A stretch of DNA of 31,493 bases from a virus (taxonomy: Duplodnaviria; Caudoviricetes), in the IMG/VR virus record IMGVR_UViG_3300021124_000496, positions 1-31,493 of that record. One strand, given 5' to 3'. Shown piece by piece: positions 1,887-26,345 of this stretch; positions within the stretch are counted from its first letter, which is position 1, and each line of letters starts with the position of its first letter. The notes beneath the pieces are model-generated. The model searched no databases. It saw only the letters and a program-made list of their open reading frames with translations, and was not told where the DNA came from. Made by a program: the position numbers and the translations under genes.

Positions 1887-2708
1887 TTACGACTTCTTTT
1901 TTTCAGTAGTCGCATAACTCCATAGATTTTTTTGTGCACCCTGTTTAATCATATCCACAACGGCTGCTTCTGTTGCCAGCCGTACAGCATATGTAGTGGG
2001 TTCGTTGACATTTGCACCAGCCTCGACTTGTAAACTCATCGTGCTCTGATCTAGGAATGTGACCACTGTGCCACTTCCGCCTGTACTTAAGATTGTTTTA
2101 GTAGCACCAGCAGAGATTAGTACTTCTCCAGTATGTACGCTTATCAATCTTACAACTACAGTAACCTCGTCGGTTCTATATTGTTGATTTACTCCAATTC
2201 CTAACATGGCAGCACCACTGCCACCACTTTGCAGATTAGTATCATATCCTACGATACCACCCTCTACCATAATACCAGCAATTAACATTGGCGATAGCGG
2301 CTTAGCATCTTTCCCTTCATAAGTTTCACGTTGATTACGAATTAATTGACGTTCTTTAATAAGATCATCTAATCCAACACGCTCTACAACTTGAAACCAT
2401 TTACCATGACCTGCATCTTGCAGTGCCTTAATAAGAAATACTTCGCCACCTTGCGTTACAGCACTACTTAGCACTGAAAACTTGTCGTTTTCTTTGCGTT
2501 GACCAGTTTTATCACTAAATCCATACATTGCTATAGTGATTGGTGGTCCATGTGGAGGCGGCATATTTTCTAATTCATTGTAATAACTTTTAGTTACAGT
2601 TTGTGGTACAGTACTGGCCGCAGTTGGAATCTTTGCTGAATAAGGAGTCGATGTTCTGCATCCCACTAGTGCAAGTGCCGAAATACATAATACGATTATT
2701 TTAAACAT
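1887..2708 (-). CDS. csgG: Curli secretion channel CsgG (outer-membrane lipoprotein)
   Basis: Lipobox LVGC. Hallmark motifs FSDKTGQRK, SSAVTQGG, WFQVVERVGLDDLIKERQLIR, EGGIVGYDTN, QYRTDEVTV. Confidence 0.95.
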   Translation of the reverse strand: MFKIIVLCISALALVGCRTSTPYSAKIPTAASTVPQTVTKSYYNELENMPPPHGPPITIAMYGFSDKTGQRKENDKFSVLSSAVTQGGEVFLIKALQDAGHGKWFQVVERVGLDDLIKERQLIRNQRETYEGKDAKPLSPMLIAGIMVEGGIVGYDTNLQSGGSGAAMLGIGVNQQYRTDEVTVVVRLISVHTGEVLISAGATKTILSTGGSGTVVTFLDQSTMSLQVEAGANVNEPTTYAVRLATEAAVVDMIKQGAQKNLWSYATTEKKKS

Positions 2709-3157
2709 TAGAATTTGAAACTCCCTATTGGAACTGTGATATCTGTGCGGTTGCCAGTGGCATCAATTACCGTCAGTGCGATAGTTTGGGCAGTGCTATC
2801 TTTAATCCAAGAAATAGTGCTGCCTTCGAATTGCATAGTTCCAGTAGTTGATCCATCGCTAAACATAGCATTGCTAAGCTGTAAACTTAGCTGTGCGTAG
2901 ATGCGGCTTTCCAGATTGTTGAGAAATTTAGCTAAATTTGTATTTTGAGCGGCTGCGGCTGCGTCTGCGGCATCAGCTTTTTGCTGTGCAATCAGGGCTT
3001 GTTTACGAGTATATTCTTCGTTTTCAATAGTCAACACATGACTACTGAAACCATCACCACTAAATTCAGGATTTTTAAAGCCAAACGTCATCTCACTTGC
3101 GTGTGCAAGTGTAGGAACTGTCATTAAAAATACACAAATTGCGCTAATTTTACGCAT
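2708..3157 (-). CDS. csgF: Curli assembly protein CsgF
   Basis: Signal peptide AHA-S, then the CsgF N-terminus EMTFGFKNPEFSGDG and FLNNLESRIYAQLS. Stop overlaps the csgG start (TAATG). Confidence 0.9.
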   Translation of the reverse strand: MRKISAICVFLMTVPTLAHASEMTFGFKNPEFSGDGFSSHVLTIENEEYTRKQALIAQQKADAADAAAAAQNTNLAKFLNNLESRIYAQLSLQLSNAMFSDGSTTGTMQFEGSTISWIKDSTAQTIALTVIDATGNRTDITVPIGSFKF

Positions 3158-10890: not shown

Positions 10891-11592
10891 TTAAAAAGTT
10901 AAGGTTATGATATGCTCATAACTTCTTTTATAGAAGCCACGATATAATAAGTTCTTTTGAACTGTAAATCCAGTGCCATTTAAATCGCTGCTGTATTTTG
11001 CAAGTTGTTTAAAATACATTGTGCGACGATTTTCAGCATCAAGAACTGTAAAATCTCGTTGATTCTCTATGAAGTATATATGTGTTTGCCAGTTCTGTCG
11101 ATTAATTTTGTCTAATATGTTTTGTTCGACGACAACATGATCATTGCTAGTTATAGAATCCACTGCGTTGCGTTTATGTGGAGCAGCATTTTTGTAATCT
11201 TGAAGGGTAGTTATAAGAGTTCCACCAGTAATATTTTTTAATTTAGCAAGCGCATCTCGCTGGTCTTGCTCACTGCTTGCATAGGTAAGATATTCATCTA
11301 GTGCAAGTACAATATCAACTGGTTCCGTAATATCATTAATACTATCAACAAAATCACTGCTGCTTTGCCAAGAATATTTTACGCTTTGGCTAGCAACTAC
11401 TGTGCATTTGTAATATTGCTCAAGTAATAGTATAATTGGATTAAAACTAGGGAGTACAATAGTTTCAACATGTTTAGTTTGTAAACTATCAAATAGTTTT
11501 TCAAAAATATCAACTTTTGCTTGTGCTTGTTCAATCAAACGAGTGTTTTCAGCAATATTTTGAATTTTTAACCAATAGTCATTACTAATCAT
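10891..11592 (-). CDS. Hypothetical protein, possibly a degenerate class I methyltransferase fold
   Basis: DIVLALDEYLTY...DALAKLKNITGGTLITTLQDY resembles MTase motifs IV-VI, but the glycine-rich motif I is absent. Confidence 0.45.
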   Translation of the reverse strand: MISNDYWLKIQNIAENTRLIEQAQAKVDIFEKLFDSLQTKHVETIVLPSFNPIILLLEQYYKCTVVASQSVKYSWQSSSDFVDSINDITEPVDIVLALDEYLTYASSEQDQRDALAKLKNITGGTLITTLQDYKNAAPHKRNAVDSITSNDHVVVEQNILDKINRQNWQTHIYFIENQRDFTVLDAENRRTMYFKQLAKYSSDLNGTGFTVQKNLLYRGFYKRSYEHIITLTF

Positions 11593-11599
11593 GCAAATT

Positions 11600-11631
11600 C
11601 CGATTCACTAGTATAATATTTAGTGAATCAG
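11600..11631 (-). promoter_or_regulatory. CTAAATA motif within an inverted repeat just upstream of ATG 11592
   Basis: GATTCACTA/TAGTGAATC (11602-11610/11621-11629); CTAAATA at 11623-11617. Confidence 0.6.
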
Positions 11632-11640
11632 AACTAGTTT

Positions 11641-11838
11641 TTACTTAATAAGAATACCTAACTCTTTAAGGTCTTCATACAAAGTATGGTCATTAGGAAT
11701 GGTCTCAGTTTTACCTTCCTTGACATTTTTGACAATCTTCTCAATGTCAGCGGCAGGCAAGTCTGTGCAACGTTTGAACGCAGCACGAACCTTTGACCAC
11801 TCTGGCTTATCTTTATATCCCATGATTAGCATTGTCAT
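11641..11838 (-). CDS. Small protein, possible ribosomal bL12 (L7/L12) C-terminal-domain-like fold
   Basis: 65 aa. Pattern LIMGY...KVRAAFKRCTDLPAADIEKIV...LKELGILIK parallels the bL12 CTD. Has its own TTGACA(11891-11886)-17-TATATT promoter. Confidence 0.45.
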   Translation of the reverse strand: MTMLIMGYKDKPEWSKVRAAFKRCTDLPAADIEKIVKNVKEGKTETIPNDHTLYEDLKELGILIK

Positions 11839-11895
11839 ATCTCTCTGTTTTGTTATTTTACTAATATAATATATAGTCTACGTTTTGTCAATAGT

Positions 11896-12097
11896 TTTTT
11901 AACGGGTGGGTTGCTATCCCCACGATGGTTTTAGGCTGGCCCTATAAGTTTCGGGCTTCGGTTGTCTGACACAACCACCATTACCTTGCACAGGTCTCTC
12001 ACCTGTCCAGTCCGCCCGATATGGTCTGCAGCCTTCACAGACGGTTTTTAGTTATACTCGCTCCAACCTATTAGCACAGCCGTGCCGCCGTTAAAAA
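11896..12097 (-). ncRNA. Unidentified ~200-nt highly structured RNA
   Basis: GC-rich intergenic island. 10-bp closing helix, two nested long-range helices, five hairpins and a possible pseudoknot. Three G-U pairs form only on the minus strand. Confidence 0.75.
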
Positions 12098-12100
12098 TTG

Positions 12101-12910
12101 TTATGTCCATAAACCTTTTCTTATACGAACAACAAGCATCAACATCGCAGTATCTTCTGCATCGTATGCTGCTTCAATTTCGTGAGACTTGTCTAATGCC
12201 GCACGGCTACGAGCACGTTCTTCATCGGTTTCTTTATCACGACTTTCAAAGAAATGATCACGTCCATACTTTTTGTCCATATCATCACAATACTGGCTCC
12301 AACCACTTGCGTCATGTGGGTCAGGACGCTGTGGACGCTCTGTTTTCCACCAGTTATAAAGTTTTAACACATCAATAGCACGTTGTGCTTGGTCAGTCAA
12401 TTCACCAAACTTTGGATCGCTTGGTTCCATTCCCCATGACTCGTCATAAATTAAACCCTTTTCCCATTCAAGATACTTCAATCCAAGTTCGGGGCAACGA
12501 CCGCTCTTCCACACAACTTTCTTGCTTTCTTCTGTGCTTAACCAACGGCTCTTCCACGCAAGTTCTTTTTCAACATAATCAACAATCCCTTGCATAATAC
12601 CGTGAAGAATACGCTCATCTAAATCATGATATTGTCCAACTGATAAACCTGTTGGAAGAATATGTGTTTGACGCCAGAAACGGTTGCGTAGATAATAACG
12701 AGCGTTATCAATATGACCAACGGTGTTGCGATCAATTTTATCAAGAATACGAGGAAAGGTTTCGGTTACCCAATAACCAATAGGATGTGCTGATTTGGTT
12801 TCACGCTTCCACACAGACCATTCGCCCCATTCAAGAGCAACTGGTTTGTTGATACCAAACTTCTTGCGAAGCCAATCAAATAGTGCTGTTTCAGACCAAT
12901 AACGACTCAT
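12101..12910 (-). CDS. Hypothetical Trp-rich phage protein (true start likely ATG 12910)
   Basis: The ORF-track extension to 12967 overlaps tRNA-Thr. MSRYWSE... follows a GGGGA SD. Confidence 0.75.
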   Translation of the reverse strand: MSRYWSETALFDWLRKKFGINKPVALEWGEWSVWKRETKSAHPIGYWVTETFPRILDKIDRNTVGHIDNARYYLRNRFWRQTHILPTGLSVGQYHDLDERILHGIMQGIVDYVEKELAWKSRWLSTEESKKVVWKSGRCPELGLKYLEWEKGLIYDESWGMEPSDPKFGELTDQAQRAIDVLKLYNWWKTERPQRPDPHDASGWSQYCDDMDKKYGRDHFFESRDKETDEERARSRAALDKSHEIEAAYDAEDTAMLMLVVRIRKGLWT

Positions 12911-12928
12911 TGCAATCCCCAAAGTAAA

Positions 12929-13003
12929 TGGTGCCCAAAGAGAGGATTGAACTCCCGACCTATGCATTACAAGTGCATTGCACTACCGCTGTGCTATTTG
13001 GGC
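12929..13003 (-). tRNA. tRNA-Thr(UGU)
   Basis: GCCCAAA/TTTGGGC acceptor, ATGCA-CTTGTAA-TGCAT anticodon arm, GTTCAATC T-loop, encoded CCA. Confidence 0.96.
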
Positions 13004-13004
13004 T

Positions 13005-13361
13005 TTATTCTTTTGGAACAGTATGCTTGATACCGTCCCAACTTCTATTTACTTTAGCAGATTCTGTAGAAAAGTCAATAACTAAATTGTAAAATTCATC
13101 AAGTTCTTTATTCCAGTGACCGAGCAATGCTGTTGCTAGGTCTATTGTTTTCTTCCAATCACTGCCTTTATAGGCAGTTATTAACTCTGCATGCATTACT
13201 TTAAAAAATTCAATTGTAGAGATATCAGCTATATCTACTTCAATCACAGCATATAAAGTAAGCGGCTCAGACATATCTGGTTGAATTACTGTATCAAGTT
13301 CCAATACAGTATACTTTTCTTTGAGTTGTTGCACAAGTTCTTGATTAAAAATAATATTCAT
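13005..13361 (-). CDS. Hypothetical protein (start likely ATG 13361)
   Basis: MNIIFNQE...; helical C-terminus Y..SDW...L..FY...WDG resembles the TPR-like tail of some class III adenylate cyclases. The longer ORF-track start overlaps the divergent gene. Confidence 0.6.
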   Translation of the reverse strand: MNIIFNQELVQQLKEKYTVLELDTVIQPDMSEPLTLYAVIEVDIADISTIEFFKVMHAELITAYKGSDWKKTIDLATALLGHWNKELDEFYNLVIDFSTESAKVNRSWDGIKHTVPKE

Positions 13362-13401
13362 GATACTATTATATATAATTACTACAGAAAGACAATAAAA
13401 A

Positions 13402-14178
13402 ATGCATTTTGATTTATATAGTGATTTGCACGATAATTGGTGGTCCAAAGAAAAATTATTGGATTACGATGGTATAGGAACAAGTTTAGTAGCAGTTATT
13501 GCCGGTGATATCAGCAATGATTGGAATTACACTTATGAAAAATTAGTAGAAATAAGCAATCATTATAGACATGTTATATTTGTTGATGGTAATCATGAGC
13601 ACAATCATAAAAATAATATAACACAGCATTGTGCTGAATTTAGTGAAAGAATTGCGCCACATCGTAATATCACATACTTACATAAAAGTTGTATTGTATT
13701 AGATGATACGGCTTTTGTCGGTTGTAACGGTTGGTGGACATATGATTTTTGTATGCCAGAAATGAGTAGTAGCGAATGTTGGGAACGTTTAGTTGTTGAA
13801 GGATTTGAAGAAGAAAAATTAAGTGAAATTTTTGTTGTTGCTAAAAATGAAGCCAAAATGCTTTATAATCAAATTGAAAATTTTAACGATGATCCTAGAA
13901 TCAATAATATAGTTGTTGTTACCCATACTGCGCCAATGAAACGATTTTCTTATTTGCCACCTGGTTATAATCCAGTTCATTATGGTCGCATAGGCAACAG
14001 TTTATTTCAAACTGCACTGCTTGCAAATACTAATCGCAAAGTTCATACATGGTGTTTTGGGCATGTTCATCACGAATTTGATGAGGTGATAGATGGCATT
14101 AGATATGTATGCCATCCACGTGGTCGTGAAGATGAAGGCATTGGAGAAATTTATTTTCCAAAATTAATAGAGGTTTAG
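13402..14178 (+). CDS. Calcineurin-like metallophosphoesterase
   Basis: SDLH, AGD, GNHEH, THTAP, FGHVH motifs. Confidence 0.9.
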   Translation: MHFDLYSDLHDNWWSKEKLLDYDGIGTSLVAVIAGDISNDWNYTYEKLVEISNHYRHVIFVDGNHEHNHKNNITQHCAEFSERIAPHRNITYLHKSCIVLDDTAFVGCNGWWTYDFCMPEMSSSECWERLVVEGFEEEKLSEIFVVAKNEAKMLYNQIENFNDDPRINNIVVVTHTAPMKRFSYLPPGYNPVHYGRIGNSLFQTALLANTNRKVHTWCFGHVHHEFDEVIDGIRYVCHPRGREDEGIGEIYFPKLIEV

Positions 14179-17099: not shown

Positions 17100-17348
17100 T
17101 TATTGTGCGATGCCACTATTACGAAGTTCTTTTAACTTCTTTTGCCAACGTTTCTGGGCACGAGCCTTTGCTTTTTTGCGAGTCATGCTTGGTTGTTCAA
17201 AACGTTCACGCTCACGAAGAAGTTGAAAAATACCATCCTGTTGGAGAACCTTTTTCATCTTGCGAAGTGCCTTGTTTACATCATTATTGTGAACCTCTAC
17301 AAAAAATCCACGTTGACGAACGTTTTCAATTTCTGGTCTGTGTGCCAT
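17100..17348 (-). CDS. rpsU: Ribosomal protein bS21
   Basis: VEVHNNDVNKALRKMKK...GIF..LRERERFEQPS..RKK.K.RA..R; AAGAGG SD. Confidence 0.9.
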   Translation of the reverse strand: MAHRPEIENVRQRGFFVEVHNNDVNKALRKMKKVLQQDGIFQLLRERERFEQPSMTRKKAKARAQKRWQKKLKELRNSGIAQ

Positions 17349-25432: not shown

Positions 25433-25899
25433 TTTGCATCCTTATAAAACCAGTGGTGTCCTATCTTTTTAATAAACTTGAACCCTTTATTCTTAAAAGG
25501 TTTATTATTAAAATATAGGGCACCATCGGTTGGATCAACCATATAGGTTGAATATAGTACCATCATCGCAATGCTGTAAAAATCATTGCGATTTTTATCT
25601 TGTTCAACTGGCTTGAATGGAAAGCAAATAAAAGTAAATTGGCAATCAATGCCGTGTTTTTCATATACAATTCTACACGGTGAACCTGGAAATTTGCCAC
25701 TTTCTAATCTGTTGCGAATTACCCAGGCAATTGCAACTTGACCTTCATAGTCTTCACCACCAGCTTCATTCTTGATAGCTTGGGCAACACACTCGCTAGG
25801 AGATTCAATAACGATTGGTTTTTGGGATTTTGTTTCTTTGGCTGTAACAGGATAACTCACTGTTAAGAGCAGTGCCAAAGATAATAAAAGTTTTTTCAT
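25429..25899 (-). CDS. SleB/Hydrolase_2 cell-wall hydrolase (start ATG 25899)
   Basis: Signal peptide MKKLLLSL; CVAQAIKNEAGGE, VIRNR, CQFT, DPTDGALYF, IGHHWFY. The longer ORF-track start lies within the tmRNA. Confidence 0.9.
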   Translation of the reverse strand: MKKLLLSLALLLTVSYPVTAKETKSQKPIVIESPSECVAQAIKNEAGGEDYEGQVAIAWVIRNRLESGKFPGSPCRIVYEKHGIDCQFTFICFPFKPVEQDKNRNDFYSIAMMVLYSTYMVDPTDGALYFNNKPFKNKGFKFIKKIGHHWFYKDAN

Positions 25900-25915
25900 C
25901 GCCCTCAATAAAAAA

Positions 25916-26170
25916 GTGGTGGGATTCTGTTGCCAAGTTCCCACCGAACTCCGATCAAGCCGCTAGGCGAAGATCATGTGCCATATTGTCGTTTGCACTT
26001 ACGATTTTTGGACTATAAGGCATCCAACCCACTATCTACTTCAACCTTTTCAATGCCAATCGATACCTACTTCGGGCCCAGAGTAAACACATCACTTTAC
26101 TAATGTGTTTATGGTGGACCCGCAGGGTGACGCTCCCTGGTCTTGACCATCTATTAGTCGCTATCAACAA
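25916..26170 (-). ncRNA. ssrA: Permuted two-piece tmRNA (alphaproteobacterial type); tag ANDNMAHDLRLAA; outer ends approximate
   Basis: Acceptor piece ends CGGGTCCACCA (CCA 26114-26112); 32-nt hairpin spacer; coding piece starts GGGCCCG (26079), giving G3-U70; tag frame 25996-25955; 3' hairpin GGTGGGAACTTGGCAACAGAATCCCACC. Confidence 0.93.
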
Positions 26171-26178
26171 TAGTATAT

Positions 26179-26209
26179 TATTTATAGCACTATTCAGGGT
26201 TTATGTCAA
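26179..26209 (-). promoter_or_regulatory. tmRNA promoter: TTGACA-17-TATAAA overlapping TATAAATA
   Basis: TTGACA 26209-26204; TATAAATA 26186-26179. Confidence 0.7.
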
Positions 26210-26345
26210 GGGTTATTTGCTGCTGCTTACCACAATGAGGGCAATATAGTTTTTTAGGCTTCCAATCGTCCATAACGGCGATACTAAACCACATTTTACA
26301 GAACTCACACGTAAAATGCCAGATTTTTTCTACGTTGGCTTTCAT
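26190..26345 (-). CDS. Small zinc-ribbon protein (51 aa)
   Basis: Not in the ORF track. MKANVEKIWHFTCEFCKMWFSIAVMDDWKPKKLYCPHCGKQQQITLDINPE has CxxC...CPxC; ATGA overlap with the upstream gene. Confidence 0.8.
   Translation of the reverse strand: MKANVEKIWHFTCEFCKMWFSIAVMDDWKPKKLYCPHCGKQQQITLDINPE

Follow-up and report, generated by a model that had tools for sequence, protein, structure and literature searches.

Stable RNAs made from the tRNA regions of phages have had unexplained jobs since rnaC and rnaD of T4, whose roles were given as unknown in a 2010 review (PMC3014915). Several other described RNAs lie close to these in setting or in shape. GOLLD and ROOL are phage RNAs often found near tRNA islands (10.1101/2024.12.08.627333), the HDV-like theta ribozymes are phage RNAs that lie beside tRNAs, often amber suppressors (PMC10879173), and the Y RNAs of the YrlA type are non-coding tRNA mimics that also occur in phages (PMC4201824). 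A screen of IMG/VR as a whole lists 8,495 unnamed RNA candidates of 29-151 nt (PMC10690425).

Here we analysed what we call the window, the whole 31.5-kb stretch of DNA under study, which is a piece of a large phage from a virus record that is ~9% complete. An earlier note made from its letters had singled out an interval of ~200 nt as a multi-junction structured RNA with a probable pseudoknot, acting as a stand-alone RNA or a ribozyme. Comparison with relatives indicates that this interval is a conserved, single-copy phage gene on the minus strand for a predicted structured RNA, uncatalogued so far, and its carriers are uncultured giant freshwater phages.

Results

The genes of the window include those for ribosomal protein S21 (17100-17348, minus strand), Hsp20, ClpS and CsgF/CsgG-like proteins, the last beside a FecR-domain gene (1887-3157, minus strand), together with two tRNAs and a permuted tmRNA (25864-26213, minus strand). 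The tmRNA, with the tag ANDNMAHDLRLAA and a non-canonical T loop, is of alphaproteobacterial type, which suggests an alphaproteobacterial host for the phage. Sequencing runs that contain the window's DNA are mostly freshwater or aquatic metagenomes, and none of the 21 runs listed is an RNA run. Four DNA sequencing runs compared over the RNA region gave close variants only; one of the four may be where the window's DNA came from. A complete relative (G427) is 338 kb long, carries one copy of the RNA in one syntenic place, and has 19 tRNA matches above the Rfam cut-off; no Ro60 (TROVE), CCA-enzyme or RNase P gene was found in it. Searches of two relatives found neither a CCA-adding gene (PF01743) nor RNase P RNA (RF00010). 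The features of the locus are collected in Table 1.

Table 1. The predicted RNA, its parts and its neighbours, by position in the window.
Feature	Position	Strand	Remarks
tRNA-Thr(UGU)	12929..13003	-	upstream of the 269-aa gene; promoter-like site at 13078-13051
269-aa gene, without known family	12101..12910	-	stop 3 nt ahead of the RNA
Gene for predicted ~200-nt structured RNA	11896..12097	-	23 distinct full-length versions; single copy in G427
Closing stem, 5' strand, acceptor-like, 7 bp	12088..12094	-	pairs with 11899-11905; 10 bp in the window
D-arm-like hairpin, 4 bp and 4-nt loop	12074..12085	-	23/23; three pairs swapped in L189
P3, 5' strand, anticodon-stem position	12063..12070	-	pairs with 11932-11939, encloses the insert
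Conserved motif AG(C/U)GAG-YRNAA-CU	12050..12062	-	whole in 22/23; GAG-YRNAA-CU in 23/23
Variable arm, closing helix 12044-42/12014-12	12012..12044	-	three pairs, each 23/23, all with changes on both sides
Palindrome CUGCAG, apical loop	12026..12031	-	predicted kissing or dimer site
T-loop hairpin, 5-bp stem, loop UG(A/U)GA-GA	11990..12006	-	23/23; C-G to U-A swap in three
P7 short helix, 5' strand	11983..11985	-	pairs with 11954-11956; 22/22, 22/22 and 20/22
Pseudoknot, 5' strand	11977..11981	-	pairs with 11925-11929
Optional hairpin	11961..11975	-	changes on both sides in 4/5 pairs; deleted in L017 and L170
Pseudoknot, 3' strand, variable-loop position of tRNA-like frame	11925..11929	-	
T-arm-like hairpin, 5 bp and 8-nt purine-rich loop RRURRCRN	11906..11923	-	T-like pairs 21-23/23
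Closing stem, 3' strand	11899..11905	-	AAA next, no CCA
Sigma-70-type promoter of the next gene	11863..11891	-	5 nt past the RNA; 11/12 matches; 23/26 flank contexts
65-aa gene, without known family	11641..11838	-	usual downstream neighbour of the RNA; independent of it

The 23 distinct full-length versions measure 180-222 nt and are 57-91% identical to the window where this was measured; they include a natural minimal version of 180 nt (L017) and three distant ones of 57-59% identity (L189, L190 and L194). Among loci found through the 269-aa protein the RNA was present in 18 of 18 (17 whole, one cut), and among those found through the 65-aa protein it lies directly upstream of the gene in all 19 close homologues. 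A profile of the 269-aa protein returned 46 further loci, and since only 22 of these, the three distant ones included, carry the RNA, it is optional to the phage. One metagenome scan returned 18 loci; its pattern had been tailored to the close group, so that distant members there would be missed. Among 12 close relatives compared, the six most distant have an RNA identity of 0.84-0.90, versus 0.54-0.62 at third codon positions of the neighbour gene, and ~50 bases of the pseudoknotted core are invariant.

Wider searches added no members. The covariance model (R2) scored 221.8 bits on the window's RNA, a figure high by construction, and over 30 whole records it returned five full-length matches, each previously known. 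A D-arm pattern gave 78 loci, all of them known close versions or chance, and a hairpin-only pattern gave 47 loci with no new full-length member. The T-loop hairpin was seen near position 1201 in L320, L338, L345, L353 and L356, a group that by eye resembles HDV/theta and has two members among tRNA genes, and in L322 and L330 the same hairpin sits near 1201 in a different, shared, small promoter-proximal fold; no Rfam family covers the hairpin at the six loci searched (L320, L322, L330, L338, L345 and L359). A pattern scan of GTDB gave 15 loci, ten of a Granulicatella-type repeat and five chance-like, none accepted as a homologue; the repeat was rejected on its 43-50 matches per genome, the presence of AGCGAG in 6 of 17 aligned copies, and a score of 6.9 bits. 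It is itself a dispersed, palindromic element of ~160-230 nt that is not in Rfam, with compensatory-looking changes and a AGGUGAGAGAC loop in most copies (L250:2443-2670; G001, G207, G214, G277).

The earlier note had not recognised the RNA as RNase P, SRP, 6S, a group I/II intron, a hammerhead or a riboswitch, and the catalogues gave no family for it. Rfam returned nothing for the window's RNA at gathering score or with a meaningful E-value (best E 6.7), and for the three distant versions only a 26-nt piece matching DUF805b (E 0.52). BLAST with the window's RNA and two distant versions found nothing meaningful in 50,697 GenBank phage records, nor did a tblastn search of the same records with two neighbour proteins, and a family search with the 65-aa protein matched no known family. 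We found no description of the RNA in the literature searched, and a piece of it may be among the 8,495 unnamed candidates of the IMG/VR-wide screen.

That the interval forms a GC-rich island was borne out (0.51-0.54 versus 0.27-0.35 just downstream). Its folding energy is modest (z scores: minus strand -2.8, plus strand -2.6), and elsewhere in the window two 202-nt tiles reach a similar stability; the case for the RNA rests on conservation and covariation. The earlier note had named covariation among homologues as one of several checks. Across the 23 versions, 15 of 37 core pairs show changes in both partners, a count in which registers were set by hand for five sequences (three distant, two short), most double changes come from the three distant, hand-aligned sequences, and L189 is excluded for P3 and P7, its register being ambiguous and its P3 bulged. 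An untouched MAFFT alignment gives 13 of 47 pairs with both partners changed, a number that 0 of 500 shuffles attain, and sliding the partners lowers pairing from 93% to 31-52%, in a control that ignores the relatedness of the sequences. Read on the minus strand, helix columns among the 20 close versions hold G-U in eight and A-C in two, which favours an RNA of the minus strand, as the earlier note had argued from wobble pairs.

Most of the helices proposed earlier are kept across versions, as are the hairpins at 11906-11923, 11990-12006 and 12073-12086. The 10-bp closing stem (11896-11905/12088-12097) retains its inner 7 bp, with six pairs present in every one of the 23 versions and the remaining one in 19; one A-U pair is swapped for G-C, and in L194, which has a swapped pair, the stem is exactly 7 bp long. 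In P3 (11932-11939/12063-12070) the inner three pairs form in 22 of 22 versions and two pairs have changed on both sides. The hairpin at 11960-11976 covaries, though it is deleted in 2 of the 23. The UGAGA motif, described as T-loop-like, recurs as UG(A/U)GA with GG/CC closure in all 23. Three of the five pairs of the proposed pseudoknot (11981-11977/11929-11925) change on both sides, the strands reading AUGGU/ACCAU, AGUGUU/AACACU or UGGGUU/AACCCG, and in each of the three distant versions the 3' strand has exactly one 6-bp upstream partner; L189 offers two possible pseudoknot strands. P7 shows only one-sided G-C/G-U changes and is thus more weakly supported.

Two other helices of the earlier note and its alternative fold are, on this comparison, particular to the window sequence. 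Five of the six positions of 11951-11956/12014-12019 pair in only 5-7 of the 20 close versions; the hairpin at 12025-12041 is partly kept, with outer pairs in only 10-16 of the 20; and the pairing of AUGGU with 12025-12021, offered in place of the pseudoknot, has its last pair in 5 of 20, its strand being absent by eye from the three distant versions. The bases of the unkept helices serve instead in 12044-42/12014-12 and 11985-83/11956-54. The comparison also brought out features beyond the earlier account, namely a tRNA-like layout, the AG(C/U)GAG-YRNAA-CU motif and a palindrome.

The layout follows the order of a tRNA: a 7-bp closing stem, a 2-3-nt link, a D-like hairpin of 4-5 bp, a stem in the anticodon position, a variable strand, and a 5-bp T-like stem. 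An insert of ~120 nt sits in the anticodon's place, the variable strand makes the pseudoknot, and both the 7-bp acceptor-like and the 5-bp T-like parts of a stack are present. A true tRNA was ruled out, since none of the 23 versions has a UUCRA T loop or a 7-nt anticodon loop, which the insert replaces; neither ARAGORN nor Rfam calls a tRNA. A 3' CCA is encoded in none of the 23 and would have to be added by the host. The D-like loop is 4 nt long in 22 of 23 versions, and this, together with the lack of an encoded CCA and of UUCRA, makes a true tRNA elbow doubtful. A kissing contact between D-like and T-like loops was rejected because the GCU-AGC match of the close group is gone in the three distant versions. 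The D-like loop of L189 is longer, and its arm resembles the D arm of a tRNA-Leu (L217), a likeness that hints at descent from a tRNA.

A palindrome of 6-8 nt occupies the tip of the variable arm in all 23 versions (CUGCAG in seven, AUGCAU in 13, then GUGCAC, CUUCGAAG and UCUAGA), and it survives three central tetramers, UGCA, UCGA and CUAG. Adjacent central bases cannot pair within one molecule, so their changes argue for pairing across chains, the same kind of evidence as was used for the palindromic loops of OLE and GOLLD (10.1101/2024.12.08.627333). Chance alone places a 6-nt palindrome in 35% (L190) and 30% (L194) of shuffled loops and anywhere in a shuffled arm 46-62% of the time, and the swaps among CUGCAG, AUGCAU and GUGCAC would equally fit a pair closing a UGCA tetraloop inside one molecule. 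We regard the evidence that the palindrome gives for self-pairing as moderate.

In the window no promoter was found directly upstream of the RNA, and the stretch from 11500 to 13500 showed no terminator on the minus strand, so here the RNA would need to be excised from the tRNA-Thr transcript, of which tRNA-Thr(UGU) is likely the first part and which likely also carries the 269-aa gene. A longer frame of 288 aa listed for this gene overlaps tRNA-Thr (12910-12967, minus strand); its homologues point to 12910 as the likely start, giving 269 aa. The mature RNA likely ends near 12094 and 11898. Its tRNA-like frame would permit such excision, for which a YrlA-type Y RNA that is cut by RNase P and receives CCA offers a precedent (PMC4201824).

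Some relatives are arranged differently. Of 26 distinct flank contexts, seven carry a TTGACA-17-TAnnnT site whose end falls 6 nt ahead of the 7-bp stem, a placement from which transcription would be expected to start at the first base of the stem, and in L189 the order is promoter, RNA, terminator, next promoter. These promoters and the L189 terminator indicate a stand-alone RNA, as had been proposed, and the promoter claimed earlier for the next gene was found as well (Table 1). tRNA-Thr lies upstream of the RNA in the window and the three distant relatives, and an amber tRNA does so in several relatives. This amber (CUA) tRNA is followed by a gene of 193-196 codons whose third codon is TAG and which lies immediately ahead of the RNA's own promoter (L189:6802-7555; also L011, L015, L017, L161, L170, L171 and L194, the upstream amber tRNA motif being unmatched in L171); that the TAG is kept in distant relatives suggests read-through dependent on the phage's suppressor tRNA. 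Relatives have insertions of 0.15-1.4 kb at the junction immediately 5' of the RNA (12098-12101), while the 5' border of the RNA is fixed. On the plus strand, the T-like hairpin (11906-11933) is terminator-like and lies downstream of two weak promoter-like sites, which may be chance.

Discussion

The reading of this RNA that we would place first, if only tentatively and at appreciably less than an even chance, is that of a putative self-pairing, stable, tRNA-shaped decoy or scaffold acting in trans on host tRNA-handling proteins during infection. Some phages would transcribe it from a promoter of its own, and in the window it would come last on the tRNA-Thr/269-aa transcript. The 7+5-bp stack may then let the host's RNase P and 3' trimming set the ends, a step for which we see balanced odds. 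Somewhat more probably, the T-loop hairpin would capture a purine from AG(C/U)GAG-YRNAA-CU, building a rigid core packed with the pseudoknot. The chances that the palindrome joins two copies as the predicted dimer seem to us about equal either way, and it is a more speculative step, tentative like the reading itself, that such a dimer would offer two tRNA-sized ends to host tRNA-processing or tRNA-attacking proteins. Against this reading, the RNA lacks the anticodon loop by which anticodon nucleases might be misled, the gene context points to no binding partner, and the RNA is optional to the phage. The covariation-backed fold, the 180-nt natural version and the three distant versions would allow in vitro tests without phage culture. 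If the predictions hold, giant phages would have, for their takeover of translation, either a natural RNA assembly of small size or a tRNA-binding RNA of a new sort.

Instead of acting on tRNA-handling proteins, the RNA could form an RNA-only assembly, a multimer or cage like OLE, ROOL, GOLLD and manA, in which the tRNA-like frame would serve only for processing or stability. The palindromic loop in 23 of 23 versions, the other conserved loops that are free for contacts, and the company that GOLLD and ROOL keep with tRNA islands all fit such an assembly, and natural RNAs below 200 nt can form cages and dimers (10.64898/2026.07.01.735769). It is nevertheless the less likely account in our estimation, as a single self-complementary site was found, the GCU-AGC match is lost in distant versions, and the raiA, GOLLD and ROOL models gave no match.

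A role in binding tRNA directly appears improbable. On this reading AG(C/U)GA and UG(A/U)GA would lock together into a platform of two T-loops, in the manner of T-box, RNase P and the L1 stalk, and the RNA would be a tRNA-derived, RNA-only dimer with its anticodon replaced by that platform, capturing or shielding tRNAs during infection; by clamping tRNA elbows, the dimer would protect or sequester tRNAs or aid their processing. It would add a fourth class to the RNAs that bind tRNA elbows, the first of phage origin. The double T-loop consensus of T-boxes is AGAGA with UGxRA (PMC7583486). UGxRA is found in 23 of 23 versions and AG(C/U)GA in 22, the third base being the variable one in both; the first five bases of the conserved motif resemble the AG bulge of T-box Stem I, and in one genome 3 of 15 T-boxes have AGCGAG as that bulge; and tRNA genes are among the neighbours. 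The exact AGAGA, however, occurs in 0 of 23 versions, and L003 reads AUCGA. The two loops lie ~50 nt apart, whereas one short helix separates them in real T-boxes, and UG(A/U)GA is closed by its own covarying stem, unlike UGxRA in real T-boxes; such a closing stem would hinder interlocking, on our reading of the stacking described in PMC4810234. The same hairpin also appears in unrelated phage sequences and a bacterial repeat, and may therefore be a generic module. For the core of the tRNA-shaped RNA, we accordingly prefer an ordinary T-loop that would capture one purine over a double T-loop.

The ribozyme half of the earlier proposal has gained no positive evidence, and we consider it slightly less probable still that the RNA cuts itself out of, or processes, a tRNA-containing transcript. 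It does sit in such a transcript, has a pseudoknotted core with ~50 invariant bases, and shares its T-loop hairpin with sequences that look HDV/theta-like by eye (L320, L338, L345). HDV/theta is the sole class at which this hairpin hints, and there the base immediately following P4 is the catalytic C (PMC10879173); a C stands within 4 nt of the T-loop hairpin in only 4 of the 23 versions, so that the RNA was rejected as a member of this class. No nested double pseudoknot was seen. No Rfam ribozyme matched the window or the three distant versions, and versions with their own promoter and terminator leave nothing to excise.

We think it very doubtful that the RNA is a cis-acting leader, either riboswitch or attenuator, of the 65-aa gene and its operon. 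Its position directly upstream in 19 of 19 close homologues is what a leader would show. In 23 of 26 contexts, nevertheless, a strong promoter intervenes between RNA and gene, the RNA of L189 is followed by a fixed terminator, L191 and L193 (both incomplete records) keep the gene and promoter without the RNA, and L168 keeps the RNA with different DNA downstream. An element acting as DNA (a miniature transposon with terminal inverted repeats, an origin or a protein-binding site) is highly improbable, for although the ends form a 10-bp inverted repeat and a multi-copy bacterial repeat shares two short motifs, there is one syntenic copy in the 338 kb of G427, G-U exceeds A-C by 8 to 2 on one strand, the pseudoknot covaries, a promoter is aimed at the first base, and the bacterial repeat reaches only 6.9 bits (E 3) with the RNA model.

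Returning to the RNA as a tRNA-shaped molecule, comparison with described systems places it among them without making it a clear member of any. Group I intron and RNase P cores were rejected on consensus motifs and Rfam, the latter giving no match with the conserved P4 core of RNase P RNA. Its AG(C/U)GA and UG(A/U)GA fit or nearly fit the AGAGA and UGxRA of the double T-loops of T-box, RNase P and L1 stalk; it differs from T-boxes in spacing and closure, and no specifier loop, T-box sequence or antiterminator was seen. A T-box leader was rejected, as RF00230 gave no match and a promoter lies between the RNA and the next gene. Compared with the theta ribozymes, the RNA is much longer. With tmRNA it shares tRNA-like ends and a pseudoknotted insert in the anticodon's place, but it has neither a GGGG start nor CCA (0 of 23) and no conserved tag frame by eye, and the window has its separate permuted tmRNA. 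The Y RNAs were set aside because the GNCGAAN0-1G motif occurs in 0 of 23 versions and G427 has no TROVE/Ro60 gene; unlike YrlA, this RNA keeps the normal, non-permuted order of tRNA arms, and it has no canonical T loop.

Like this RNA, OLE, GOLLD, ROOL, manA and raiA have large or intricate folds and no assigned function. Phages carry GOLLD and ROOL close to tRNAs, and OLE and GOLLD pair through covarying palindromic loops (10.1101/2024.12.08.627333); the present RNA differs from this group in its tRNA-like frame. The models of raiA (RF03072), GOLLD (RF02032) and ROOL (RF03087) gave no match in the record at E 10, the ROOL model working on known members, and the pair of core motifs is absent from five ROOL members.

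Among phage RNAs, the comparison with T4 is the closest. There rnaC (species 1) has 139 nt and rnaD (species 2) 119 nt, and the RNA described here is longer, pseudoknotted and without a canonical T loop. Neither nhmmer nor a covariance-model search matched the T4 region (L262), and rnaC has a canonical GGUUCGAAUCC T arm and lacks both core motifs. The 8-mer AGUAGCGU, which L003 and L041 have as their T-like loop, does occur at two places in rnaC, one of them a hairpin loop; this match is short and was noticed only afterwards. Within T4 itself (L262:609-872), GUAGCG is present at two sites in rnaC, and its exact complement, CGCUAC, in the first hairpin loop of rnaD, so that a kissing contact between rnaC and rnaD is possible. 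The RNA is thus a real, uncatalogued family, narrow in range, and nearest in kind to rnaC and rnaD of T4 and to the self-pairing ornate RNAs.
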